Assembly: GCA_028285545.1 (NCBI GenBank)
Contig: JANQPA010000119.1
Coordinates: 1-21,140 of the forward strand
DNA from: Saprospiraceae bacterium
GTDB lineage: Bacteria > Bacteroidota > Bacteroidia > Chitinophagales > Saprospiraceae
DNA length: 21,140 nucleotides
Direction: 5' to 3'
Position numbers and translations under genes: made by a program. Shown piece after piece: positions 5,695-21,140 of this stretch (position 1 is its first letter; each line of letters starts with the position of its first letter). The notes beneath the pieces are model-generated. The model worked only from the letters and a program-made list of their open reading frames with translations. It was not told the DNA's origin and did no database searches.

Positions 5695-6645
5695 TCATTT
5701 CGATTCATCAATCAATATACTTTCACTTAAGTCAATTGCTTGTCCATTATAATCAGTAGTCCAACCAAACTTGACCTTAAAAGAACCTTCTCTGGCAACG
5801 TTGACAATAATATTACTGGCGATATCAGTTCCTGGAATGCTCATCGTAATTTTAAAATCCCGGACCAGGAACAATTCTTTTGTTTTTCTTTTCTTTTGAT
5901 GGTGGACCCTGTACCAATAATCGATCCCAGCTTTTTTGGCTAATTCATAGACTCTTCTGAAATCCGATTCCGTAGAATATTCATTCAGGGTGAACACTTT
6001 TTCTGTGCTGTCAACTTTTGATTGATCTGAATCAGAATTTAATATTAAATCCCTCTCTTCAGGATTAGACTTTTGAGTTGCAGAGATTTTCTCCTCTACT
6101 TTTTGGCTGTTTTCTATTTCGAAAAGATCTGCAGTTTCGGTAAAAAAAGACTGTGGAAGGTCCCTAAAAGTAATTTTTGTTCCCGAGTTCATATTGTTAG
6201 TTAGGGTATCGGTATCAAGAGAGATAAGGAAGGTATCAATTTGCTTTCTTTTGTCATCATTAGTATTTCTAGGCTTTTCTTTAGGTCCATCTTTTACTTG
6301 ATCAGCTACTTTTCTGTCTTCTAATTCTATTTTTGGCTCATTTCCCTGAGCAAGGATTATTTTGGTATTATCGGAGTATACGTCGGTTATGGTTTCTTTA
6401 TTGAGGTTCTGATTATTTGTATTATAGCTCAGAAATACGGTGGTACCAATTAAAACTGCGGTGCTTGTAATAAAAAGGCTGGTTTTATTAATTATATTTT
6501 TAAAAATTCCGTTGCTCCATTTAGTTATTCCTCCTCCGGATATGCTTGTAGAAAATCTTTTGCTTACCTCATCGAAAGAAAGCTTGGGCTCCTGCGATTT
6601 AGCAGACTGAAATAATTCATCTAGTGGGCGCTCTCTTTTATTCAT
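5695..6645 (-). CDS. putative anti-sigma factor (single-pass membrane protein, 316 aa)
   Basis: The ATGA start/stop overlap with the upstream ECF sigma gene indicates translational coupling. A short cytoplasmic N-terminus is followed by one TM helix (SLFITSTAVLIGTTVFLSY) and an extracytoplasmic domain. Confidence 0.7.
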   Translation of the reverse strand: MNKRERPLDELFQSAKSQEPKLSFDEVSKRFSTSISGGGITKWSNGIFKNIINKTSLFITSTAVLIGTTVFLSYNTNNQNLNKETITDVYSDNTKIILAQGNEPKIELEDRKVADQVKDGPKEKPRNTNDDKRKQIDTFLISLDTDTLTNNMNSGTKITFRDLPQSFFTETADLFEIENSQKVEEKISATQKSNPEERDLILNSDSDQSKVDSTEKVFTLNEYSTESDFRRVYELAKKAGIDYWYRVHHQKKRKTKELFLVRDFKITMSIPGTDIASNIIVNVAREGSFKVKFGWTTDYNGQAIDLSESILIDESK

Positions 6646-7166
6646 GACGGATTATTTTTATTTAATTGGGAAAGAGGAGCAGGGTTCAGTAGCTGAGTCA
6701 GTTTTTTTCGGCCCCGCACAAGCCTTTGTTTTACCACAGAAATAGAAACATCATGTAATTCAGCAATTTCTTTAATAGAAAAACCTGTAATTTCAAATAA
6801 AATGAGGCTCTCTTTTTGAGTTTCAGGAAGCTTAGCAAGAGCTTGATAGAGCAGGTGAACATCAGCATCCCTATCCGTACGAATATCACTTGATACATTC
6901 AAAATCTGTTCACTATCGTGATAGCTAAGCTCTTTTTTTTTCTTATTATAATTTGATAGTACCCTGAGGCAAATGCTAAATAAATAGGAAAGAAATGCTT
7001 TTTCTGATTTTAACTCGTGAAACTTTTGGAAGGCAATAACCAGGGTGTCATTCATCAAATCACCGTACTCCATTTGTCCAAACACCCTTGCCCTGCAAAA
7101 ACGTTCAAATCGGTCATGAACCGGTTTGTAGAGTGATAAAAATTTCTTTTGCCTTTTAGTGTTCAT
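6642..7166 (-). CDS. RNA polymerase ECF-type sigma-70 family sigma factor (174 aa)
   Basis: Region 2 (DLMNDTLVIAFQKF) and region 4.2 HTH (FSIKEIAELHDVSISVVKQRLVRGRKKL). The size is typical of ECF sigma factors. Confidence 0.85.
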   Translation of the reverse strand: MNTKRQKKFLSLYKPVHDRFERFCRARVFGQMEYGDLMNDTLVIAFQKFHELKSEKAFLSYLFSICLRVLSNYNKKKKELSYHDSEQILNVSSDIRTDRDADVHLLYQALAKLPETQKESLILFEITGFSIKEIAELHDVSISVVKQRLVRGRKKLTQLLNPAPLSQLNKNNPS

Positions 7167-9946: not shown

Positions 9947-10189
9947 TCATTTATCCTCTCTTAGATTTTCTTCATTTAGCTTACCTAGTTCTTGGTTGAT
10001 CTCATCGGAGATTTCCTGAACTTCATCAGAGGTAGCTTTACTTTTGGAAACAAGTGTTTTGTATTTGATTAAATCTAAAAGCTCTTGTATGTCAGATAAT
10101 TCAATAAGACCTTTAGGGATGGATATGATTAATTCATTTGGATTGTTTGTAATCTTCATCTTGTCTACTTTTATTCTAACAATTACCAT
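9947..10189 (-). CDS. hypothetical small acidic protein (80 aa, or 70 aa from the internal Met at 10159)
   Basis: The ORF fits exactly between flanking genes. The sequence is charged and helical-looking. No recognisable motif. Confidence 0.35.
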   Translation of the reverse strand: MVIVRIKVDKMKITNNPNELIISIPKGLIELSDIQELLDLIKYKTLVSKSKATSDEVQEISDEINQELGKLNEENLREDK

Positions 10190-10291
10190 TCTAAAGGAAA
10201 AGTTCCTTTTTACGCAGAACTAGTAATATACTTGGATTTTTCGTGAAATCAAAGGGAGAGAATTCTATTCAAAGTTTGGATAGTGGCACTC

Positions 10292-10690
10292 CTATTCTAA
10301 AAGATGATTATCAATATATTCATTAATATAATTAATAATTTGATTTTGTTCTGTTGTTCTAAACTCAGTTTTTTCAAAAAAACAATTTGGAGGCCAAATT
10401 AATTGCTCTTTAATTGCAATAGTTCTTAATTCTCTCCAATCTTCTCTTTTAGTATTCTGAAAGGCCCAAATTCGCCATTTAACAATTCTAAAACTCCACC
10501 AAATCCAAGCTGAAATTATTCCTAGCATCATTCCAACTATCATTCCTAAATCAGTATAATCTTTAGATAAAATTTTGGGCGCAAGAATGATTGACCCTAG
10601 TGCAAAGATTGAGATAATTATGGCAACTGGAATGTTTACCGTTGTTTGCCCAACGCTAATTACTTTATCTATTGTTTGATATTGTTTCAC
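10292..10690 (-). CDS. hypothetical small membrane protein with 2 TM helices (132 aa)
   Basis: Two clear hydrophobic helices (IPVAIIISIFALGSIILAP and LGMIVGMMLGIISAWIWWSF). Same strand and immediately downstream of the giant ATPase gene. Confidence 0.6.
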   Translation of the reverse strand: MKQYQTIDKVISVGQTTVNIPVAIIISIFALGSIILAPKILSKDYTDLGMIVGMMLGIISAWIWWSFRIVKWRIWAFQNTKREDWRELRTIAIKEQLIWPPNCFFEKTEFRTTEQNQIINYINEYIDNHLLE

Positions 10691-10799
10691 TATGATAAAA
10701 AACTACCCTTTGAGCTATAAAAAAATTATGTACACTTTCATATTAAAATACTTTGATTCAATTTCTTTTATTACTCATTTAACCAAACTACTACTAGTC

Positions 10800-13700
10800 C
10801 TACTTCTTTTGATTTTTCTCAATCGCCTCCTTAATTCCTTCTACACCATCCGTAAAGGCAGACAACTGAGCAATCACCTGCCCCATCGGATTATTGGCAT
10901 CTACTCCCTTAAAGAGTTTGTTTTTATTGAAGGTCTTTTTAATTTCTTCCCATCTGGATTTTTCTTCCTCAGAGATCCAACCTAACATTTCCTTCAATTT
11001 TAACAAGTTGGCTTCTGCATCTGCCGTCAGCGTTTGTGCTTCGCCTTCATAGTGATCCAGGATAAGGGTTTGCAATTCCTGATCATTGAGGATAGGGACT
11101 ATTTTTTCTGCCAATTTATTCATGTCTCGATAAGAGCCTTGTAATTTAAAAGCGGGTTCTGTTCTATATTCATCAGACATGGCAGCTGAGCGGATGTATT
11201 CTTGGTTGACGGTAAGGATAGTATCCCTTACCAGTAATAGTTTACTTAAAACAGCCAGATATTCATTTGTATCTTCGGCACCATATTGTCCTTCAAACTC
11301 GGCACCATCCCTTGAGCCTGTTTCTGCAATTTTGATGAAGGTATACACATCCTTCATGTTTTTCCCTGCCAGGCGATTCAAGCTCGGATTAGAAGTCAAT
11401 GAGTTTTCAATATAACTCATCTTGAAGGCATCAGCAGTTTCTCCTATGATATCACCGAGGTTGTAAATATCTGCTCTGTTGGCAAGCATATCAGGAATTT
11501 GGAATTTAGCACCACTTTCGGTGTAGGGATTACCTGCCATAACTACGCAAAATCTTTTGCCACGCAAGTCATAGGTTTTACCTATTCCATTATAAACACC
11601 CTCAATTTTTCGCTGGGCATCACATAATGAGATGAATTTCTGTAAAAATTCAGGGTTGCAATGTTGGATATCGTCCAGGTATAACATAATATTATCGCCC
11701 ATCTCCAGGGAAAGATTGAGTTTGTTCAATTCTTTACGTGCGGCCATGCTTGGAGCATCCTCTGGAGCCAGAGAAGTGACTTCATGTCCAATAGCTGGGC
11801 CGTTTATTTTTACAAAGATCAAACCCAAGCGATTGGCAATATATTCCATCAATGTGGTCTTACCATAGCCAGGAGGTGATATTAGTAGTAACAAGCCCAT
11901 TCGATCGGTCCGTGTATCTTCTCCAACTGTTCCCAATTGTTTAGCAAAATTATTACCAAAAATAGGTAGGTATACCTTGTCAATTAGTTGATTGCGAACA
12001 AATGAACTTAGTACTCTAGGCTGAAATTCATTCAACTGTAACTTCTGACGATACTCTTCGTTCAGTTGTTTTTTTAGCGAGCTATAAGCTTCAAATTGTG
12101 GGCAAGCTTCTGTAGTGAAGTGCTCCAATTTATCCATAAACTGATGGAAGTCAAAAGCGTAAGTCCCATTTTCTAAAACGGCATGATCCCCATGAAAACC
12201 CATTAATTGAGCTTGGGTGGGAGTGTCAATTATTTTACTTTTTTCTAAATCCCCTGCCATAATCAACATACTGGCTTCATCAAGATAGGCCCATAGGTTG
12301 GCCTCTTCTATTTGTTCAATATAAGCTTGAAGCCATCTGCGAATAAGATTGAATTGTGGTCTGGACTGGCCATCCAATTCTTTAACAGAATTATTGAAAA
12401 TGGTGACGGCTTTTTTCTTTTTGATAAAGGCCTTAAAGTCCTTGCTTAGATCTACGGCCTCTTTACTGGCTACAAAATGCTCGGACCGGGCTAATTCCTT
12501 GAACAAATAATTGGCAACCCTAGAAGCTAATGCTTCAGGAAAAAGTCTAGATTCTCCTAAAAACAGGCCGATTTCCTGACTTAACTCTTCAATTAGATAA
12601 TCAAACTCATGAGTGTCTGGAAAAACTTGTAAAATTACTCCGGCACTTTTAAGTTGATTGTTTAGTAAGATCTTTCGTTCTTTTTTAGCAAAAAATAGCC
12701 AAAACAGCTTTCCACAAGCTCTTACCCTGGGCGTGAAATATAACAGATCCAGTCGATCCGAAAGATCCACTAATTGAGCTAAGATTTTAGCTGCATCCTC
12801 ATCATGGATACCTTTGGTATACCCTTCCTCATATCGGTTGGCAGCAAATTCCTGAACCAAGGGCAGAAGATCTTTTTTATTTTTCTTTAATACCTTTTGA
12901 GATGCTGTTTGATATATCTGAAAGGCCAGGTATTCTGATCGGTATACTTGATTATTTTCAGAAACCAGACTTTGATTCCAAACTTCTTTAGTGTCTAAAA
13001 ATCGAGGATCCTGGATGGGCTCATAAAATTCGGTGCCTGTTAAATGGAAACTCATTCCTCCATTATCTCTTACAATGGTCAATTCCAGCGGCTGGGTATT
13101 AACAGAAAACTGGTGTTTTCCCAATTTCATTACATTAGCGCCTCCAACATACAAATCCTGACGATCTCTCAATTGCCTTAAAGCCTCTTCCCTGAGGGAT
13201 TTGAGTCTTGTTTGAATGCCACCTGCTTTGTTGCTATCATCTTGTTCATTCAGATCGCGAATGATATCCCGAACTTTATCAACCATAAGGTCGGATGCAA
13301 AGAAGCTGTTTATTTCATTAATTTCTTTGAAAGCAGCGGTTCTTTTTTGTATCCCTTCCAGGATTCTATTTGCGGCATTTTGGAGAGCTGCTGTCCTGTT
13401 GTTTCGGGCTTCTACCAATGCATTTCTTCTGGTTTCAAAAGCACTGTAAACCTCTTCTCTTTTTTCTGCCAATGAGGTAGTGAATTCAGGGATTTCCACA
13501 AAGCGACTTTCCAGCTCCTCTAGTTGAACCATTAATTTGGAGAGGTACTCATCACATTTTTGTGGATTATCAGATACTTCCAAAAAGTTGATAATGCTTT
13601 GATCCAGTAGGCGCATCTGGGCATTAAATTCTGCTCCGGCCTCTGTTTTTGCCAGATGATCTTTTTTGCGCTTAATAGCTGCTTTGACCTGATTAAGGCG

Positions 13701-15695
13701 AGTAAATAGTACAGAGATATTATCAATGATGCGGGTACTTTGGGTGGCATCTTCGATTTTTAGATTACTGACAATCTCAATTAATAATTCCAGTTCAGTA
13801 CCAATTTGATTGGCACACTCTTCTAATTCGTTGGCTTTTTTGGCCGTATTTAGATCTTTGATTTCAGCCTCTCGGGCCTCAATTTTTTTATCATAGGGTA
13901 ATAATGCTTCATCTTGTAATAAAAATGAAATACATCCCTCGGATAATTGCTGACTATTGGTATCAATCTCCTCCTCCAGATGAGTGATGGTTTCGGTATT
14001 GGCATAGGGAAGATCCTTCAGACTAATTACCTCTCCACGTAATTGCCGCAGCTCAGCCAGAATTGTAACAAATTGGTCGACAGAGTCAAAAGATTGTCTG
14101 CGTATTTGATCAAATAAGTTTTGGGCATGGATTTGAACCTGGTTAATTTCCTCCTGGGTTTGTTTCTGACTTCTGACTTTCTTTTCATAAGCATCAATAG
14201 CGGCATTAGCTGTTTCTCGGATATCCGCCAGCGGCTCATTTAGCTGAAAAGTAGAAGCATCATTTAACCAATAGTAGGAATCGATGACATCGGTACATTT
14301 TTTTACCAGGTCATCATATAAATCAGCATAATTATCTTCTTTGCTGCTTAGTACCAGAATTTCCGTACATTCTGCCATGGCCCGAACAATGTCCTTATTG
14401 CCAATTTTGTACAGGTAAGAGTTGGTATGCTCGGACGGAACTTCTTCGCCGGCTACAAAAGGAGTTTGCCAGATTTGAATGACATGATGCTTGATGGGAT
14501 CTTCCTCAGATCGAAAATAACACAATTCTCCACCGGGAAATAGGGTGAAACCATTGCAAAGGATAGGGGTTTCGACCTTTTGTTCAATTACATTATAGTG
14601 CAATAAAACATAAATACCCTTCTTTTTATCGTAAAAAACATAGAGATAATCTTCACCATTGGGCGACACGATGCGCTTTTTAAAAAGCTTATTGCGCATA
14701 TCAGGATCGAAGATCTTGTACTCCCCGGTTTTTAGATAATAGCCATTGGCAAAAATTAAACCATGCTCATCCGGGAGCAGAACACCCGAATCTTCCAGGG
14801 AGTCAATGCGCTGCACTTCCTGCATTTTTTCATTAAAAACAAAATATCGATATTCCTCCTGGTAGGGACGAATTTTTAGGGCAATCAAATTACCCAGGTT
14901 CGCATATAAATACTCTGCATCATCAAGGGTCTGGTCCTTATATTCCACATCCTCACTATAAATACCTCGGCCATCCTCTGTATTATCTTCTACCTTAATG
15001 GTTAAATCGCCACCTACTGTTTCTACAAAAACACGATCAAGAACAGACACATGAGGATGATCTCCTTTTTTGTGATCATCACGTCCTAGTCTTTTCCATT
15101 TGAATTCATGTTGCTGAGGAAAACGAACCTCATGATCGGATCGATTATCAATATATTGAATGCCTTCATCGGTGATCAACCATTTGAAGGTTTTAAAATC
15201 ATCTCCTTTTTCCGTTAAATGGAATACCATATATAGGTAAGAACCTCTTTGAGAAAAACGAGCGAAGTAGGCATCCTTATAGTACCGATAAAGATTGGTG
15301 AAGTCCAGTTGAAATTTTTCATCGTCAAGAATGGACAAATCTTTTTCTACAAAACGCTGCTCTTTAAACTCATAAATGCTGAATACATCCTTGAGTTGAA
15401 TTCCTGAGCGAAGTCCCACATGCACATTATAGCCAAAGACACAGTTATTGCCAATGGCTACAATATCCCTGGCAATACAATAATTGCTAGTGTTGACACG
15501 GTCAGTAGCAATCAATTGTGTTTCTATGGCACCAAAAACTTCCTTTCTTGCACGATTCAATTCCTGCATCCGTTTCCTCAATTCAGTGGCTTGCGCATCG
15601 AGGCGGTTGCGAATTATTTCATAGGTGCCACTTTCTAGTTGTGGGTTGTGTTGTGTAGTATCTTGGATATTGCTTGACATTTGAAATGTATTCAA
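10800..15695 (-). CDS. giant multidomain protein (1631 aa): beta-rich N-terminal domain, then a long coiled coil, then an alpha-helical region, then a C-terminal MoxR/dynein-type (AAA_5-like) AAA+ ATPase
   Basis: The uninterrupted 4.9-kb ORF begins at a TTG at 15695; the first ATG is at 15680 (MSSNIQ...). Walker A LISPPGYGKTT is encoded at 11856-11870 and Walker B MLYLDDIQH follows. The VVMAGNPYTESGAKFQIPDMLANRADIY segment gives the sensor and arginine pattern of MoxR/McrB/dynein-like AAA+ domains. Heptad-rich E/K/L/Q segments are at about 13000-14100. Confidence 0.85.
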   Translation of the reverse strand: MNTFQMSSNIQDTTQHNPQLESGTYEIIRNRLDAQATELRKRMQELNRARKEVFGAIETQLIATDRVNTSNYCIARDIVAIGNNCVFGYNVHVGLRSGIQLKDVFSIYEFKEQRFVEKDLSILDDEKFQLDFTNLYRYYKDAYFARFSQRGSYLYMVFHLTEKGDDFKTFKWLITDEGIQYIDNRSDHEVRFPQQHEFKWKRLGRDDHKKGDHPHVSVLDRVFVETVGGDLTIKVEDNTEDGRGIYSEDVEYKDQTLDDAEYLYANLGNLIALKIRPYQEEYRYFVFNEKMQEVQRIDSLEDSGVLLPDEHGLIFANGYYLKTGEYKIFDPDMRNKLFKKRIVSPNGEDYLYVFYDKKKGIYVLLHYNVIEQKVETPILCNGFTLFPGGELCYFRSEEDPIKHHVIQIWQTPFVAGEEVPSEHTNSYLYKIGNKDIVRAMAECTEILVLSSKEDNYADLYDDLVKKCTDVIDSYYWLNDASTFQLNEPLADIRETANAAIDAYEKKVRSQKQTQEEINQVQIHAQNLFDQIRRQSFDSVDQFVTILAELRQLRGEVISLKDLPYANTETITHLEEEIDTNSQQLSEGCISFLLQDEALLPYDKKIEAREAEIKDLNTAKKANELEECANQIGTELELLIEIVSNLKIEDATQSTRIIDNISVLFTRLNQVKAAIKRKKDHLAKTEAGAEFNAQMRLLDQSIINFLEVSDNPQKCDEYLSKLMVQLEELESRFVEIPEFTTSLAEKREEVYSAFETRRNALVEARNNRTAALQNAANRILEGIQKRTAAFKEINEINSFFASDLMVDKVRDIIRDLNEQDDSNKAGGIQTRLKSLREEALRQLRDRQDLYVGGANVMKLGKHQFSVNTQPLELTIVRDNGGMSFHLTGTEFYEPIQDPRFLDTKEVWNQSLVSENNQVYRSEYLAFQIYQTASQKVLKKNKKDLLPLVQEFAANRYEEGYTKGIHDEDAAKILAQLVDLSDRLDLLYFTPRVRACGKLFWLFFAKKERKILLNNQLKSAGVILQVFPDTHEFDYLIEELSQEIGLFLGESRLFPEALASRVANYLFKELARSEHFVASKEAVDLSKDFKAFIKKKKAVTIFNNSVKELDGQSRPQFNLIRRWLQAYIEQIEEANLWAYLDEASMLIMAGDLEKSKIIDTPTQAQLMGFHGDHAVLENGTYAFDFHQFMDKLEHFTTEACPQFEAYSSLKKQLNEEYRQKLQLNEFQPRVLSSFVRNQLIDKVYLPIFGNNFAKQLGTVGEDTRTDRMGLLLLISPPGYGKTTLMEYIANRLGLIFVKINGPAIGHEVTSLAPEDAPSMAARKELNKLNLSLEMGDNIMLYLDDIQHCNPEFLQKFISLCDAQRKIEGVYNGIGKTYDLRGKRFCVVMAGNPYTESGAKFQIPDMLANRADIYNLGDIIGETADAFKMSYIENSLTSNPSLNRLAGKNMKDVYTFIKIAETGSRDGAEFEGQYGAEDTNEYLAVLSKLLLVRDTILTVNQEYIRSAAMSDEYRTEPAFKLQGSYRDMNKLAEKIVPILNDQELQTLILDHYEGEAQTLTADAEANLLKLKEMLGWISEEEKSRWEEIKKTFNKNKLFKGVDANNPMGQVIAQLSAFTDGVEGIKEAIEKNQKK

Positions 15696-15735
15696 GTTTT
15701 CAAGTTAGCAAGTTTTCAAGTTAACTTGCTAACTT
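15691..15735. promoter_or_regulatory. TTCAAGTT x4 tandem octamers overlapping a perfect 13-bp-stem hairpin, in the 5' region of the giant ATPase gene
   Basis: Four octamer copies: ttcaagtt, ttcaagtt, agcaagtt, ttcaagtt. aagttagcaagtt (15702-15714) pairs with aacttgctaactt (15723-15735), loop ttcaagtt. A T-tract follows on the plus strand (ctaggcttttt). Confidence 0.6.
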
Positions 15736-15862
15736 CTAGGCTTTTTGGAAAGATCTGATCTTCCTAAATTGTTCATGGCAGCCCTAGACTACCACGAACA
15801 AAACAATATGTCTCTATTTATCTCATGGCGCGATAGCGACATATATCTCTATCTGTCTCTTT

Positions 15863-17953
15863 TTACAAAACTTCAGCGGCTTTCTGGTCACCCATGCCCA
15901 GGGATTTGACCATGGCACGGATGTTATCGATGGTTGATTGCTGACTATCATTGGCCTTATCGCTCAATTTAAAGAGCAGGGCTGAGATGGTCAGGTTTTT
16001 GATGTCATCAGAAGTGACTCCCATTTGTTTGACCAGTTGGCGAAGACGACTTAGCAGACCACTATGACCATTCGAGCCATTTCCATGGATCAGGGCATTT
16101 TTTATCTGACTAAGCTGTTCGCTGCTTCCGATCAAGCCATCAATGGTTTTACCACGATTGACTGCATTGAGGATGCTGTTTACAAATTGCATTTCTCCAC
16201 CGACGATATCGATGTTGGCATTTTTCAGAGCTTCTGCTAAGACTGTAGCCTGTGCCTGTGCCACATCTTTTTGTACATTGATGTGTGCCAGTTCGATTTC
16301 TTTTTCTTTCTCCAGGCGAAGTTTAAACTCTTCATGGTCTTTACCTACACCATCTAGTTTTTGCATAGCAACAGCTTTCAACTCGACACCTTTGGCTTCG
16401 GCGGTATATTTTTCTTCCATCACTTTAGCTTCTACCAAACCTTGTTTTTCCATGGCATCGGCTTTTACTTCAATACCTTTAGCTTCAGCCTGGGCTTTTT
16501 TCTCCAGGACATTAGCTTCAAGATTACCCTCTAACTCCTTCGCTTTAGCTTTCGCTTCAATCACCTGAGCTTCGGAAAGACCGATGGTAGCCTCTTCAGC
16601 TGCTTTGGCTTCGGCAGATATTTTTCGAGCATCAGCCTCTTTCTCGGCAGCATTTTTTTGAGCTTCTGCTTCAATCAATAGTGTCTGAGCTTTTATTTCA
16701 GCAGCCAATTTCTCGGCTTCAGCTGCTTTTTCCTGCTCAATTACGGTAGATTCACCTACGGCTTCTGCTTCAATAACTGTCTTTTGCTTTAAACGTTCGG
16801 CCTCTGCCAGGACACGGGTATCTTTGATGCGCTCTTCTTCTTCTACCACCTTTTTCTCTACCATGATTCGATCTCTAATTACATCCTGGATATTTTTCTT
16901 TTCTTCTTCAATGGCCTTTTCTTTTTCAATTTCGGCCAGAGTTACGATTTTTTCACGCTCTGTTTGTTCCAGAGCACGATCTTTCTCTACTCTTTCAGTC
17001 TCGACCGCTTCAGTACGTTCTTTATTTTTGGCAGCTACGATAACCTGACGCAATTTATTTTCTTCCAAGATGGCCAATTCCTCTTCTGTTTTTATGCGTA
17101 CAGACTCTGATCGAAGACGCTCTTCTTCATTGATTTTGGCAATCTCTGCTCCTTCACGCGCTTTAATGTTGGCGATTTCTCGCTTTTGGCGTTCTTCTTT
17201 TTCTGCTAACTGACGCTCATATTCCAGAATAGCTTCACGAGCTTCTACATTCTGCTCTTTGAGTGTTTTCTCTTCTTCCCGACGGATGAAGTTTGCTTTT
17301 ACTTTTTGCTGAGCTGTTAGTTCGGTGATCTTTTTGATACCTTCGGCATCCAGGATATTACTTTCTTTGAGGTAGTTAATATCCGTTTGTTCTAAATAAT
17401 CTATGGAGCAATCGTCTAATACATAACCATTCAAATCTTCACCAATAGTACTTTGAATTTCTTGATTGAAATTTTTTCTATTATCGTATAGTTCAATGAA
17501 ATCGAAGCGTTTCCCAACTGTTTTAATGGCCTCCGAAAATTTGGCCTCGAATAATTCTCTTAATGTGTCAGAGTCAGAAGCTCTTTGGCATCCAATAGAC
17601 TGAGCAACATTTTTGATGTCTTGTGTATCTTTATTAATTCTAACGAAAAATACGACTTTTATATCTGCACGTATATTATCCTTACATATCAAACCATCCT
17701 CTTTCATTCGAACAATTTCGATTGTTTTTATTGAAAGATCCATTGTCTCATACATTTCAATAACGGGAATGACTAAAAGCCCATTCTCAAAAGCAACTCG
17801 AGTTTTACGAGCACCTGTAGCAATGATTGCTTTTCCTTGAGGAACTTTTTTATACCATCGAGCAATGGCAATGCAGATAGCAAAGAAAAATACAGCTAGA
17901 ATCACCCCTAAAGTGATCCATACATTTTGAAAAATCGTTGCTAATAATATCAT
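15863..17953 (-). CDS. flotillin-family SPFH/band-7 protein (YqiK/FloT-like), 696 aa, with an N-terminal membrane anchor and a very long Glu/Ala/Lys-rich coiled coil
   Basis: N-terminal TM helix (ITLGVILAVFFFAICIAIARWY). SPFH domain (GKAIIATGARKTRVAFENGLLVIPVIEMYETMDLSIKTIEI...). About 330 aa of EA-repeat coiled coil. A C-terminal flotillin-like tail. Confidence 0.9.
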   Translation of the reverse strand: MILLATIFQNVWITLGVILAVFFFAICIAIARWYKKVPQGKAIIATGARKTRVAFENGLLVIPVIEMYETMDLSIKTIEIVRMKEDGLICKDNIRADIKVVFFVRINKDTQDIKNVAQSIGCQRASDSDTLRELFEAKFSEAIKTVGKRFDFIELYDNRKNFNQEIQSTIGEDLNGYVLDDCSIDYLEQTDINYLKESNILDAEGIKKITELTAQQKVKANFIRREEEKTLKEQNVEAREAILEYERQLAEKEERQKREIANIKAREGAEIAKINEEERLRSESVRIKTEEELAILEENKLRQVIVAAKNKERTEAVETERVEKDRALEQTEREKIVTLAEIEKEKAIEEEKKNIQDVIRDRIMVEKKVVEEEERIKDTRVLAEAERLKQKTVIEAEAVGESTVIEQEKAAEAEKLAAEIKAQTLLIEAEAQKNAAEKEADARKISAEAKAAEEATIGLSEAQVIEAKAKAKELEGNLEANVLEKKAQAEAKGIEVKADAMEKQGLVEAKVMEEKYTAEAKGVELKAVAMQKLDGVGKDHEEFKLRLEKEKEIELAHINVQKDVAQAQATVLAEALKNANIDIVGGEMQFVNSILNAVNRGKTIDGLIGSSEQLSQIKNALIHGNGSNGHSGLLSRLRQLVKQMGVTSDDIKNLTISALLFKLSDKANDSQQSTIDNIRAMVKSLGMGDQKAAEVL

Positions 17954-18054: not shown

Positions 18055-18708
18055 CTACTTTTTCTCAATTAAATAATATTTATCATCCTCTGTTTTGCCA
18101 ATGATGATGGCTTGTTCCCCAGATGATATGGGGTCTTTGTCGTTTTCAGTTTTTACATTTATTAAGTTAGGGGTGTCGTCAATCAGTACTTCAGCCTGTC
18201 CAAATTTGGTAGCACTGGCCGGTAATTTGAGCCTGCATTCCATTCCAACATAATCAATTGCCTCAGCAGTCGTATCTAATCGCTTAAAAACAGGAATTAA
18301 TGGAGTGCTCAATATTTTGGCAACTACTAAATTTACAAATAGAATAGGAATAAACATAGCTAAGGCAAAAAGAGCACTTCCTTGTCCAATGTAATAATTA
18401 CTCAGGATAGACAAAACCCAACCACTCATGGCCACAAAGGTGATGATAACCATAAAGGGCATTTTACCGAAATTAAAGAAGTGAAGTGTTCCAGCCAGCC
18501 AGCCAGTTGTGGTCCCAGCTTCCACATCTGCATCTACATCCACATCTGCGTCAAGATCAATATCGGCATCAATGTCAAAATCCAAATCGAAAGAACTCAA
18601 ATCAATCGCCCCCAGGATAACAGATAGCCAATAAAATATGACCAGCAGTAATAAAATAGTGTAAAATAAATTTACAGGTAAAAAAGCAACCTGGAGTAAT
18701 TCTTGCAT
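18055..18708 (-). CDS. NfeD/YqiJ-like inner-membrane protein (flotillin partner) with a C-terminal OB-fold and an unusual Asp-rich repeat (217 aa)
   Basis: Multiple TM helices. A C-terminal beta-barrel-like tail (GQAEVLIDD...AIIIGKTEDDKYYLIEK) is typical of NfeD short homologues. The DLDFDIDADIDLDADVDVDADVE acidic repeat sits after the first TM. The position immediately upstream of a flotillin gene mirrors yqiJ-yqiK. Confidence 0.75.
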   Translation of the reverse strand: MQELLQVAFLPVNLFYTILLLLVIFYWLSVILGAIDLSSFDLDFDIDADIDLDADVDVDADVEAGTTTGWLAGTLHFFNFGKMPFMVIITFVAMSGWVLSILSNYYIGQGSALFALAMFIPILFVNLVVAKILSTPLIPVFKRLDTTAEAIDYVGMECRLKLPASATKFGQAEVLIDDTPNLINVKTENDKDPISSGEQAIIIGKTEDDKYYLIEKK

Positions 18709-18761: not shown

Positions 18762-18974
18762 CTATAAAATGTTTTCATGGATCTTTTGCTTCATGCCAAT
18801 AGTCATATAAAGGATTGATCCAATTAAAGGTAGAAAAATAATCAAAAGTAACCAGATAACCTTATCGCTATCTCCTTTAAAATCAGCTCTAATTATGTCT
18901 ACAATACAATATATCCATAATACGGTACAGCCGATACCAATAAGAAGAATGAATAAGACAAATAATGCTGCCAT
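18762..18974 (-). CDS. PLDc_N-domain small membrane protein (70 aa)
   Basis: Two TM helices with the characteristic KVIWLLLIIFLPLIGSILYM motif of the PLD-nuclease N-terminal mini-protein family. Confidence 0.75.
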   Translation of the reverse strand: MAALFVLFILLIGIGCTVLWIYCIVDIIRADFKGDSDKVIWLLLIIFLPLIGSILYMTIGMKQKIHENIL

Positions 18975-19442: not shown

Positions 19443-20300
19443 TTACTCGGGTTTAAAAGAAACACTTACTACAGAACTAGTATTAAAAAAGCCAAGGGCT
19501 CCGTTGCTTATATTTCCTTTTACATTGGCTGGTGTAGAAGGAAATAAGGTGCCTCGCCATTCTGTTTCCATAAATAAAGATCTTAGGTACTCATAATAGG
19601 AATCTGAAAGGTTGTATTTTTTCTGAATCACATGAAAGCTAGGATTAAAACCATAAAAATGAGGGATCTCAAAATTTAAAAGACCATTTACTTCAATATT
19701 TGAATGGGTGAAGTAGGTGAAACGATAGGTAAGTGGAGGAAAAACGTCTACACCAACCTGTAAGCCACGCCTGCTGATATCTACCTCAAAGGGCAGGGAA
19801 TCAATATTTTCCTGGATCACAAACAACTCCCATTTATTAGCCTTAGTAAATCCAAATTGATGACGTCTGTACTCTAATTCTCTAAACGCACGATCTTGAT
19901 TAAAACTGATGGGCTCAAATTCAGTGGGTAGTGATGGCATGGTATCGGTGGCCATATAGATATTGTCTTCATATTGAATTTCCAAAGTATAAACTCTTCC
20001 AGGGATTCCTTGAATGCTATCTGTAAAATAATGACCTGGTTGTTCTTCCTGTAATGAATAGGTATTTAAGCCATCACTGATTGTCAAAAAAGCGCCACTA
20101 ATCATTCGATGGGATGAAGTATCATTAAAAAAGCCGCTAGAAGAAAGGCTTACTTCGTGTTTTTTAAATTCATTGGAGATTTGTCCGTCTACCACTAGTA
20201 ATTGATTATTAGAGCTTGGTTCTAATTCAATTTCCTCTACACATGAATTAAAACATAGACATAAAATAATAAGGCTAATGAATTGTACTTTTCTCATCTT
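19443..20300 (-). CDS. DUF4249-family lipoprotein (about 285 aa; start at Met14 MRKVQF rather than the upstream Met at 20339)
   Basis: Lipoprotein signal (LIILCLCFNSC). The length and C-terminal NISNGALGFFNTSSV pattern are typical of DUF4249 proteins that follow TonB-dependent receptor genes in Bacteroidota. Confidence 0.7.
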   Translation of the reverse strand, partial: KMRKVQFISLIILCLCFNSCVEEIELEPSSNNQLLVVDGQISNEFKKHEVSLSSSGFFNDTSSHRMISGAFLTISDGLNTYSLQEEQPGHYFTDSIQGIPGRVYTLEIQYEDNIYMATDTMPSLPTEFEPISFNQDRAFRELEYRRHQFGFTKANKWELFVIQENIDSLPFEVDISRRGLQVGVDVFPPLTYRFTYFTHSNIEVNGLLNFEIPHFYGFNPSFHVIQKKYNLSDSYYEYLRSLFMETEWRGTLFPSTPANVKGNISNGALGFFNTSSVVSVSFKPE

Positions 20301-21140
20301 AAAAACTGAAATTATAGGATAAAGAAGGAAATATTCCACTCACATAAGTTTTAAAAGCTCCAACATCTAGTGGATTGGGTATATTATCTGTTCCTTTTTC
20401 TTTTTTCGGTAAAATATCTATTGACAAAGTATTCTTTCGGTGGTAAACATTATAAATTGTGAAAACCCAGTAAGCAAGGCGGTCCTTTTGTTTCTTATTT
20501 TTCCCATTTAAAGTAATCGAAAGATCTAGGCGATGGAAGGTTGGTAGCCGTTGTGAATTTCGATCTCCATAAAGTGGAATGATGGTGTTTTGATATTCAA
20601 AACTGCCAATGGGAAGGGTGGTGGACCTCCCGCTAATCAACTGCCAATTTAAAGCAAACTCCCATCTTTTTTGCGTTTTATAATTCAGCCATAATTTTGC
20701 TGCATGTGGTTGATCATAATAGGTAGGATAGGCGCGCCCATCATTTATGTTTCCGATTTCTCTCAGGGACCGGCTGTAGGTGTAACTTAAAAAACCATTA
20801 AATGGCCCGCTCCTTTTTTGGAGCGTGAGTTCCAGTCCATAAGCCTTTCCTGAACCAAATCTAAGCTCGCCTTCGATAAAAGGGTTTTGAAGCAATTGGG
20901 CGTGGTCTCTAAAATCAATTTGTTGATGAAGCCATTTAAAATAGCCTTCAACGGACCACTGAAGATTGTTGTTGGTGTTTTTTTGGGTAAAACCAAGTGA
21001 TAATTGATCGGCCGTTTGAGCTGGAATATTGGGGTTGGAAGGCATAAAGGTATAGAAGGCATTAAATGCAGTAGTAGTATTCCGAAGTTGATAAATATAT
21101 TGGGCCATACGACTATAACCACCGTTTAACCAGGCATTCG
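20299..21140 (-). CDS. TonB-dependent outer-membrane receptor, C-terminal portion only (the gene continues beyond the window end)
   Basis: Beta-barrel-like alternating pattern, an aromatic-rich sequence and a terminal LSYNFSF ending in Phe (canonical OMP C-terminus). The frame appears to stay open to the window edge. The gene lies immediately upstream of the DUF4249 gene. Confidence 0.7.
   Translation of the reverse strand, partial: NAWLNGGYSRMAQYIYQLRNTTTAFNAFYTFMPSNPNIPAQTADQLSLGFTQKNTNNNLQWSVEGYFKWLHQQIDFRDHAQLLQNPFIEGELRFGSGKAYGLELTLQKRSGPFNGFLSYTYSRSLREIGNINDGRAYPTYYDQPHAAKLWLNYKTQKRWEFALNWQLISGRSTTLPIGSFEYQNTIIPLYGDRNSQRLPTFHRLDLSITLNGKNKKQKDRLAYWVFTIYNVYHRKNTLSIDILPKKEKGTDNIPNPLDVGAFKTYVSGIFPSLSYNFSF

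Follow-up and report, generated by a model that had tools for sequence, protein, structure and literature searches.

What does a giant ATPase do when its gene lies directly behind that of a flotillin? The question is raised by a contig of a Saprospiraceae bacterium (JANQPA010000119.1; the whole stretch of 21,140 nucleotides that we analyzed is called the window here), in which an earlier note, made from the letters alone, had pointed out a protein of 1631 amino acids (aa) with a C-terminal AAA+ module and a flotillin-type SPFH gene next to it. We found that the protein belongs to the DUF3686/DUF7902 family, "DNA repair ATPase" in NCBI naming, and that, judged from gene order, its gene is the last of an inherited membrane module, (PLDc_N)-YqiJ/NfeD-like-flotillin-ATPase, to which other lineages add a CesT/Tir-PspA pair and a phospholipase D (PLD) hydrolase. 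Partly by analogy with known SPFH and ESCRT-III systems, we give slightly better than even odds (roughly 0.55) to the reading that the protein is an ATP-driven remodeler of flotillin and/or PspA assemblies in membrane stress, recruited through its propeller and stalk. The cluster, in the order in which it would be read, consists of the following elements:

18762..18974, minus strand: gene of a PLDc_N protein with two transmembrane (TM) segments, 70 aa, 53 bp upstream of the YqiJ-like gene (Pfam PLDc_N, E=2.2e-12)
18055..18708, minus strand: gene of a YqiJ/YuaF (short NfeD)-like membrane protein, 217 aa, 101 bp upstream of the flotillin gene
15863..17953, minus strand: flotillin-type SPFH gene, 696 aa (Band_7, E=8e-12)
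15681..15862, minus strand: spacer between the flotillin and ATPase genes, with a short hairpin and a direct repeat (agcaagttaacttgaaaacttgct / aacttgaaaacttg) at 15700..15745
10800..15680, minus strand: gene of the giant DUF3686-family AAA+ ATPase, 1626 aa from the probable ATG start at 15680, 187 kDa, pI 5.2, no TM segment

The open reading frame (ORF) at 10800..15695 on the minus strand is present as the earlier note had described it, with 1631 codons from a TTG start and no internal stop. A database protein (P0001) with 100% identity to it is 1626 aa long, and therefore the true start is probably the ATG at 15680, which is codon 6 of the TTG-started ORF; residues are numbered below along the longer ORF. 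The protein is acidic, and a hydropathy scan found no hydrophobic stretch of membrane-spanning length. The flotillin gene lies 182 bp upstream on the same strand, in agreement with the description of the ATPase gene as directly downstream of it. A scan for intrinsic terminators called none between the YqiJ-like, flotillin, and ATPase genes, and the promoter/terminator scan of the window gave nothing above shuffle expectation, the sigma-70 consensus being of doubtful relevance in Bacteroidota. The hairpin and repeat in the spacer, agcaagttaacttgaaaacttgct and then aacttgaaaacttg, are a possible regulatory element. Two plus-strand ORFs (10692..10985 and 13212..13475) overlap the giant ATPase gene, and we treated both as spurious.

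Family membership is established by Pfam. The DUF3686 profile (PF12458, "ATPase involved in DNA repair") is matched in full, from position 1 to 448, at ORF residues 38-475 with 609 bits against a cut-off of 25, and DUF7902 (PF25472) is matched at residues 596-678 with 84 bits against a cut-off of 26 (E=9e-24). The AAA profile reaches 27 bits (cut-off, 21.2) and AAA_5 reaches 22.0 bits (cut-off, 22; E=1.8e-4), with precomputed AAA_5 matches in many of the homologues and not in all of them. The protein, which had seemed assignable to no characterized family, is thus placed unambiguously by DUF3686 and DUF7902. A well-characterized family of known function had been named as something that would speak against the proposal of a membrane-remodeling machine, and DUF3686 is not a family of this kind.

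A word-indexed search found >4700 homologues with the same three-domain Pfam signature, most of them named "DNA repair ATPase" by NCBI; the nearest come from metagenome-assembled genomes of Saprospiraceae and other Bacteroidota and are at most 83% identical. With the N-terminal domain as query, phmmer gave 628 matches (E <= 0.001) among 1.84 billion cluster representatives (50%-identity clusters), and since every full-length protein among the best 150 of these measures 1600-1930 aa and carries the domain at residues ~30-480, the domain appears to be confined to one architecture. Full-length homologues were also retrieved by tblastn from plasmid-collection records (96-99% coverage, 35-50% identity) of Hymenobacter, Proteus, Nonomuraea, Pseudomonas fluorescens (pQBR103), Photobacterium, Halomonas, Vibrio, Streptomyces, and Deinococcus.

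Taken literally, the Pfam and NCBI names would make the protein a DNA repair ATPase, which we regard as highly improbable. Apart from a weak similarity to RuvB in the P-loop only and the position of recJ three genes downstream in Pseudomonas aeruginosa, the sole support for this reading is the name on PF12458, copied into annotations. Pfam, NCBIfam, and fold searches identified no nuclease, helicase, or DNA-binding domain, and NCBIfam gave P-loop fragment matches only. PDB sequence searches, with the single protein as well as with a 94-sequence profile, yielded only short alignments (~35-45 residues) to p97 and RuvB at the P-loop. The partners that are conserved alongside it are membrane proteins. 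In the literature that we searched, DUF3686, PF12458, or "DNA repair ATPase" together with flotillin/SPFH, and flotillin together with MoxR, led to nothing relevant, and no paper tied any of the former to DNA repair.

The linkage of the ATPase gene to the YqiJ-like and flotillin genes is conserved. Of the 80 Bacteroidota loci that we fetched, 68 include 3.2 kb or more of sequence 5' of the ATPase gene; a flotillin gene lies upstream on the same strand in 63/68, and the YqiJ-like gene is also found in 61/68. The flotillin-ATPase order recurs in each of the eight loci inspected, which span four phyla (Proteobacteria, Actinobacteria, Deinococcota, and Bacteroidota), and a triad of ~200-, ~700-, and ~1600- to 1750-aa proteins is encoded in pQBR103, Streptomyces, Deinococcus, P. 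aeruginosa, Proteus, Vibrio campbellii, and Nonomuraea. A census of this kind had been proposed in the earlier note, for which homologues never found near SPFH genes would have spoken against the association; adjacency turned out to be the rule. Flotillins preceding giant ATPases in other phyla are 34-47% identical to the window flotillin over >580 aa, while the ATPases are 38-43% identical to the window ATPase; between Aquimarina and the window the values are 58% for the flotillin and 52% for the ATPase. The parallel divergence is as expected of a co-inherited module and, together with the gene order kept across phyla, it bears out the link between the ATPase and the SPFH protein. The YqiJ-like protein is 22-26% identical to its counterparts in Pseudomonas, Proteus, Vibrio, and Nonomuraea.

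Around this core, other members vary among lineages. Linkage to PspA is frequent: 34 Flavobacteriaceae loci, as well as both Pseudomonas loci, have a full-length PspA/IM30 gene a short way upstream. The order in Aquimarina (locus L027) is CesT_Tir_1-PspA-YbjQ-YqiJ-like-flotillin-(small ORFs)-ATPase. In P. aeruginosa (locus L084, 13260..13952) and Vibrio campbellii (locus L086, 12834..14612) a PLDc_2 gene (~230 aa) begins within a few bases of the ATPase stop; PLDc_2 similarity was found in none of the Bacteroidota loci. The Vibrio locus adds a gene for TelA (toxic anion resistance), and in the plasmid locus of Streptomyces (L082) a TerD gene is found at a distance of ~4 kb, hints of a wider tie with Ter/Tel-type membrane-stress genes. 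An extended cluster, YjfI-PspA-rhomboid-DUF2491-DUF350-DUF1190-glutathionylspermidine-synthase-like-YqiJ-like-SPFH-ATPase, is carried as a whole by the P. fluorescens SBW25 megaplasmid pQBR103 (locus L081, 1..13190), and the module is therefore horizontally mobile.

Some of the loci have additional features. The gap between the flotillin and ATPase genes measures 0.5-3.8 kb in many Flavobacteriaceae loci, and in Aquimarina it contains four small ORFs (L027, 8313..9780), one of them GIY-YIG. Two more GIY-YIG ORFs with identical Pfam scores lie 3' of the ATPase gene (L027, 15096..15964), and the GIY-YIG ORFs around this operon look like small selfish or mobile insertions. In Nonomuraea (locus L087, 12703..15747), a Pfam-negative ORF of 1014 aa shares ~90 bases with the 3' end of the ATPase gene, in the same orientation, and may represent a further lineage-specific partner.

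In the window, the cluster is preceded by the 70-aa PLDc_N protein, whose ORF, among the loci compared, has a counterpart in this position in the two closest relatives (L001 and L003) and in no other; in this clade it may be the first gene of the cluster, or add a membrane component to it. The YqiJ-like protein has a weak YqiJ_N match (E=0.0013, under the Pfam cut-off) and, by a hydropathy scan, ~3 hydrophobic segments, an acidic D-rich loop, and a C-terminal soluble domain; it matched no PDB sequence. The flotillin has a TM segment within residues 1-36, the SPFH domain at residues 36-185, and a long Glu/Ala/Lys-rich helical region, and among PDB sequences it matches QmcA only, and weakly. A sub-threshold Pfam iSTAND match at flotillin residues 615-692 (E=0.0024; 18.7 bits against a cut-off of 24) is probably due to chance. 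On the other side of the ATPase gene, we rejected the ORFs 10292..10690 and 9947..10189 (both on the minus strand) as members of the system, as they have no Pfam match; neither has a counterpart in any of 87 related loci. A low-GC patch, in which these two small ORFs lie, covers window positions 10001..11000, just 3' of the ATPase gene (0.31, versus ~0.38 elsewhere).

An operon of this composition, YqiJ/YuaF plus Band-7/flotillin plus a beta-propeller/coiled-coil/AAA+ ATPase, was described by comparative genomics by Ravi et al. in 2024 (PMC11237479), who proposed ATP-dependent sub-membrane dynamics as its role and reported that a PLD hydrolase is added in some Proteobacteria and that "abbreviated operons" without PspA are more widespread. 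The three core genes of the window match the published neighborhood string in architecture and order. The supplementary example in that paper is Dokdonia donghaensis; the genus Dokdonia is among the loci that we fetched, and our Dokdonia and Aquimarina loci represent the same system. The window differs in lacking the CesT/Tir-PspA dyad within the 21 kb covered, so that it corresponds to the abbreviated form. The reading of the earlier note, a possible membrane-microdomain remodeling machine, agrees with the inference made in that study.

The counterpart in P. aeruginosa is the bac locus ("biofilm-associated cluster"). In locus L084 the order is DUF2170 (BacA/PA3732), PspA (BacB/PA3731), a 213-aa protein (BacC/PA3730), a 688-aa protein (BacD/PA3729, PaFlo3), a 1746-aa DUF3686 protein, PLDc_2, YaeQ, RecJ, and M4 peptidase. 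From this gene order, the P. aeruginosa orthologue would be PA3728/PA14_16190 (BacE), which a review table lists as "ATPase." It is collinear with the window protein over the full length (41% identity over 1633 aa, with the same Pfam architecture), and its gene, the last but one of bacABCDEF, likewise comes directly after the YqiJ-like and flotillin genes. In contrast to the bac operon, the window has no CesT/Tir (BacA) or PspA (BacB) gene upstream and no PLD gene (BacF) downstream, and the 70-aa PLDc_N membrane protein gene precedes the cluster instead. The 2024 study that renamed PA3728 as BacE showed by reverse transcription-PCR that bacABCDEF forms one transcript, and BacB to BacF were up 6- to 13-fold in a bacA mutant (PMC10948618), so that co-transcription and co-regulation of the ATPase with PspA and flotillin are established for P. 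aeruginosa. PA3728-PA3732 also rise together in another proteome (PMC13637947). Neither the 2009 paper on SPFH evolution nor the 2026 paper on P. aeruginosa SPFH proteins mentions the ATPase.

The joint induction of PA3728-PA3732 upon phage infection, seen in all phage-infected samples (PMC12041424), brings up an anti-phage or abortive-infection module, in which the flotillin-ATPase pair would serve as infection sensor at the membrane, with the PLD gene as effector where it is present. Copies on megaplasmids such as pQBR103, the patchy distribution, the PLD-family gene that follows in some Proteobacteria, and the GIY-YIG ORFs nearby in Aquimarina would all fit such a role. We nevertheless consider it improbable. 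PADLOC-DB v2 returned no real match, only a P-loop match to mad8 without any passing stretch for the ATPase and none for the other three proteins, and tblastn of the giant ATPase against 50,697 phage records found no homologue. The neighbors in the window are housekeeping or envelope genes rather than a defense island, the protein cluster of P. aeruginosa, with 3222 member sequences, occupies a fixed locus beside recJ and lasB, and phage induction is expected anyway of a Psp-type envelope-stress operon.

The anatomy of the protein was studied with two AlphaFold2 (AF2) models built on a 94-sequence alignment spanning Bacteroidota and Proteobacteria. Its parts, all encoded on the minus strand, are as follows:

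15534..15638, minus strand: N-terminal 35-residue helix, ORF residues 20-54 (AF2 helix 15-49 in model numbering)
14271..15584, minus strand: DUF3686 domain, beta-propeller-like, residues 38-475, ~28 strands in four-strand groups
13146..14228, minus strand: helical, coiled-coil-like stalk, residues ~490-850 (Pfam DUF7902, composition, and heptad scan)
13662..13910, minus strand: DUF7902 within the stalk, residues 596-678 (Pfam)
11991..13145, minus strand: middle region, residues ~851-1235, with an AF2 predicted local distance difference test score (pLDDT) of about 87-95
11016..11990, minus strand: AAA+ module, MoxR/dynein/midasin clade by its predicted fold, residues ~1236-1560
11853..11876, minus strand: Walker A, PPGYGKTT, residues 1274-1281
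11661..11684, minus strand: Walker B, LYLDDIQH, residues 1338-1345
N1389 within VVMAGNP (residues 1384-1390): sensor 1
R1407 within LANRAD (residues 1404-1409): arginine-finger candidate
R1523 within QGSYR: sensor-2 candidate in the lid
10803..11015, minus strand: C-terminal helical tail, residues ~1561-1631, the last ~40 with low confidence in AF2

The domain order given in the earlier note, with a propeller-like N terminus, a helical stalk, a helical region, and a single AAA_5-type ATPase, is upheld. The N-terminal model (ORF residues 6-495; pLDDT, 88.6; predicted template modeling [pTM] score, 0.87) runs from the 35-residue helix through the ~28 strands arranged by fours to helices that lead into the stalk. 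All Foldseek matches were propellers (lowest E, 3.5e-7; probability, 1.0), at TM-scores no higher than 0.2-0.43. We can therefore predict blades of propeller type, possibly closing into a ring, in a domain far from any solved propeller. The stalk has few prolines, glycines, and aromatics, many charges, and a heptad-like pattern in a crude scan, and helices flank it at both ends in the two models; a coiled coil of ~350 aa is thus plausible, somewhat shorter than the ~400 aa at first estimated. A PDB search with this region found nothing meaningful (TEX12, E=0.046). The middle region opens with a small conserved beta domain (KLGKHQFSVNTQ...HLTGTEF), which is followed by a helical bundle, another small beta element, and a connecting helix of 37 residues; conservation along the protein is lowest at residues 1000-1200.

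The AAA+ module appears as an alpha/beta core with a lid, followed by the helical tail, in the C-terminal model (ORF residues 835-1631; pLDDT, 87.4; pTM, 0.74). The predicted structure places it in the MoxR/dynein/midasin clade of AAA+ proteins: CbbQ, dynein, NorQ, and midasin are the structures that it resembles most, and with the MoxR class (CbbQ, NorQ, RavA, and MoxR) and the dynein/midasin AAA_5 proteins it shares the GNP...R pattern and a beta-hairpin before sensor 1, modeled between the Walker B and sensor-1 strands (model residues 529-542, ORF residues 1363-1376). The motifs read by eye from the sequence, PPGYGKTT, LYLDDIQ, and VVMAGNP...R, were all located, and there is one P-loop only, as had been expected of a single AAA+ domain. 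The motifs are invariant or nearly so in the 94 homologues from two phyla, the P-loop, N1389, and R1407 being strictly invariant; the roles of N1389 and R1407 are those that we assume from their position in the model and from the usual sequence patterns of MoxR proteins. The ATPase is C-terminal, yet it does not sit at the extreme end as first described, because ~220 residues (lid and helical tail) follow the arginine-finger region. We also considered a STAND NTPase (NB-ARC/NACHT NOD module), because of the hhhhDD Walker B and the repeat domain, and rejected it; neither Pfam nor NCBIfam identified a STAND family in the ATPase, and the structural neighbors are MoxR, dynein, and Clp. The sole STAND-related match is that of the flotillin tail to iSTAND, below threshold.

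The module also departs from the MoxR class, with ~15% sequence identity, an AAA_5 score only at the Pfam cut-off, and an extension of 1250 residues on its N-terminal side, against a total of about 270-500 aa in MoxR proteins. It has no VWA gene beside it; the absence of a VWA partner reported in the earlier note applies to every window ORF of at least 80 aa, and we identified none among the annotated or Pfam-scanned neighbors of homologues in other phyla. A real difference is in the active site. The Walker A reads SPPGYGKT, and the Walker B lacks the catalytic Glu, with Asp1342 in its place in all 94 aligned sequences, so that fast hydrolysis is not assured and a slower, switch-like cycle is possible. 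The protein might then be a nucleotide-dependent switch or a structural tether on the flotillin lattice, a scaffold or membrane-skeleton element by virtue of its long stalk and propeller, in which ATP binding and slow hydrolysis would only gate assembly. The invariant DDIQH Walker B fits this well, as do the ~1200 of 1626 residues that make up non-ATPase, scaffold-like domains and the mild mutant phenotypes reported for neighboring genes. We regard it as the leading alternative, but doubtful all the same. The ATPase block is the best-conserved part of the protein (mean column identity, 0.85-0.88), and with its sensor-1 Asn, arginine-finger candidate, and sensor-2-like GSYR invariant this argues for selection on a working inter-subunit active site; in addition, the nearest structures, CbbQ, NorQ, and dynein, are active remodelers.

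AAA+ partners are known for other SPFH assemblies: FtsH for HflK/C, and the m-AAA protease for prohibitin. In archaea and eukaryotes, the AAA+ ATPase Vps4 recycles polymers of the ESCRT-III superfamily, to which PspA/Vipp1 also belong. It is in part because of these parallels that we favor an ATP-driven remodeler, as here too, by analogy, SPFH and AAA+ genes go together, joined in many lineages by a PspA gene. Compared with HflK/C-FtsH, prohibitin, and Vps4, the giant ATPase lacks a protease domain, a TM segment, and an MIT domain, and the association is known here from genes. In the mechanism that we propose, the flotillin and the YqiJ-like protein would form an SPFH assembly at the cytoplasmic face of the inner membrane, and the cytoplasmic ATPase would be recruited to it by the propeller and stalk, which would serve as a built-in adaptor in place of the VWA partner usual for MoxR ATPases. 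The C-terminal tail of the flotillin is a candidate docking site. The ATPase would oligomerize via its AAA+ module and, in envelope stress, use ATP for building up, taking apart, or otherwise remodeling polymers of flotillin and/or PspA (ESCRT-III type), or the clients of these polymers.

Several observations weigh against such a remodeler. In the window itself, tblastn searches for PspA, YjfI, and PLDc_2 found no similarity, so that neither PspA nor the PLD hydrolase accompanies this copy, and five Bacteroidota loci with enough flank have no upstream flotillin gene (L007, L021, L024, L026, and L033). The Walker B is DD in 94/94 sequences, versus the DE of the active MoxR, dynein, and p97 motors. 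The equation of PA3728 with the DUF3686 protein comes from the gene order in L084 and the "ATPase" annotation and not from an accession match. A pa3728 transposon mutant grows normally and serves as a neutral control (PMC12599236), and deletion of the paFlo3 flotillin in P. aeruginosa has almost no phenotype (PMC13086221). In our literature search, no paper tested the interactions, ATPase activity, oligomeric state, or localization of a member of the family.

The remaining ORFs of the window code for an M14 carboxypeptidase, a lumazine-binding-like protein, an ECF sigma factor, a beta-lactamase-family protein, a PQQ-type propeller, a kinase-like P-loop protein, and DUF4249, with no evident link to the flotillin-ATPase cluster, and an Rfam scan of the window gave no match. 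The ECF sigma factor gene (6642..7166, minus strand) has a 4-base overlap with the start of a Pfam-negative ORF of 316 aa (region 5695..7166), which is likely an anti-sigma factor. At the opposite end of the window (19443..21108, minus strand), a Pfam-negative ORF of 269 aa precedes DUF4249.

By itself, the window brings no new principle, as the Pfam entries, the NCBI name, and the operon (published in 2024) all existed before. Its value is that of a well-anatomized example, with motif coordinates and confident domain models, in which the "DNA repair" label is shown to be without support. Bacterial flotillins and PspA-type proteins are much studied, and the question touched here is how their assemblies are built up, turned over, and coupled to energy. 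A large and highly conserved AAA+ protein co-inherited with flotillin across at least four phyla is an obvious candidate for the missing activity, and the family is a good target, since it could supply the energy-dependent step in bacterial flotillin/PspA dynamics; a tractable orthologue is available in the P. aeruginosa bac operon, which is linked to biofilm formation and virulence. Only tentatively can we go further and suggest that the DUF3686 ATPase is the missing energy-consuming partner of flotillin and PspA/ESCRT-III assemblies, a functional analogue of Vps4 (for ESCRT-III) or FtsH (for HflK/C) built on a motor of the MoxR/dynein clade that brings its own propeller adaptor and a long stalk. 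If this were true, membrane-repair polymers would be disassembled or reshaped after stress by this ATPase, and bacterial flotillins, known for their weak deletion phenotypes, would gain a concrete biochemical activity.

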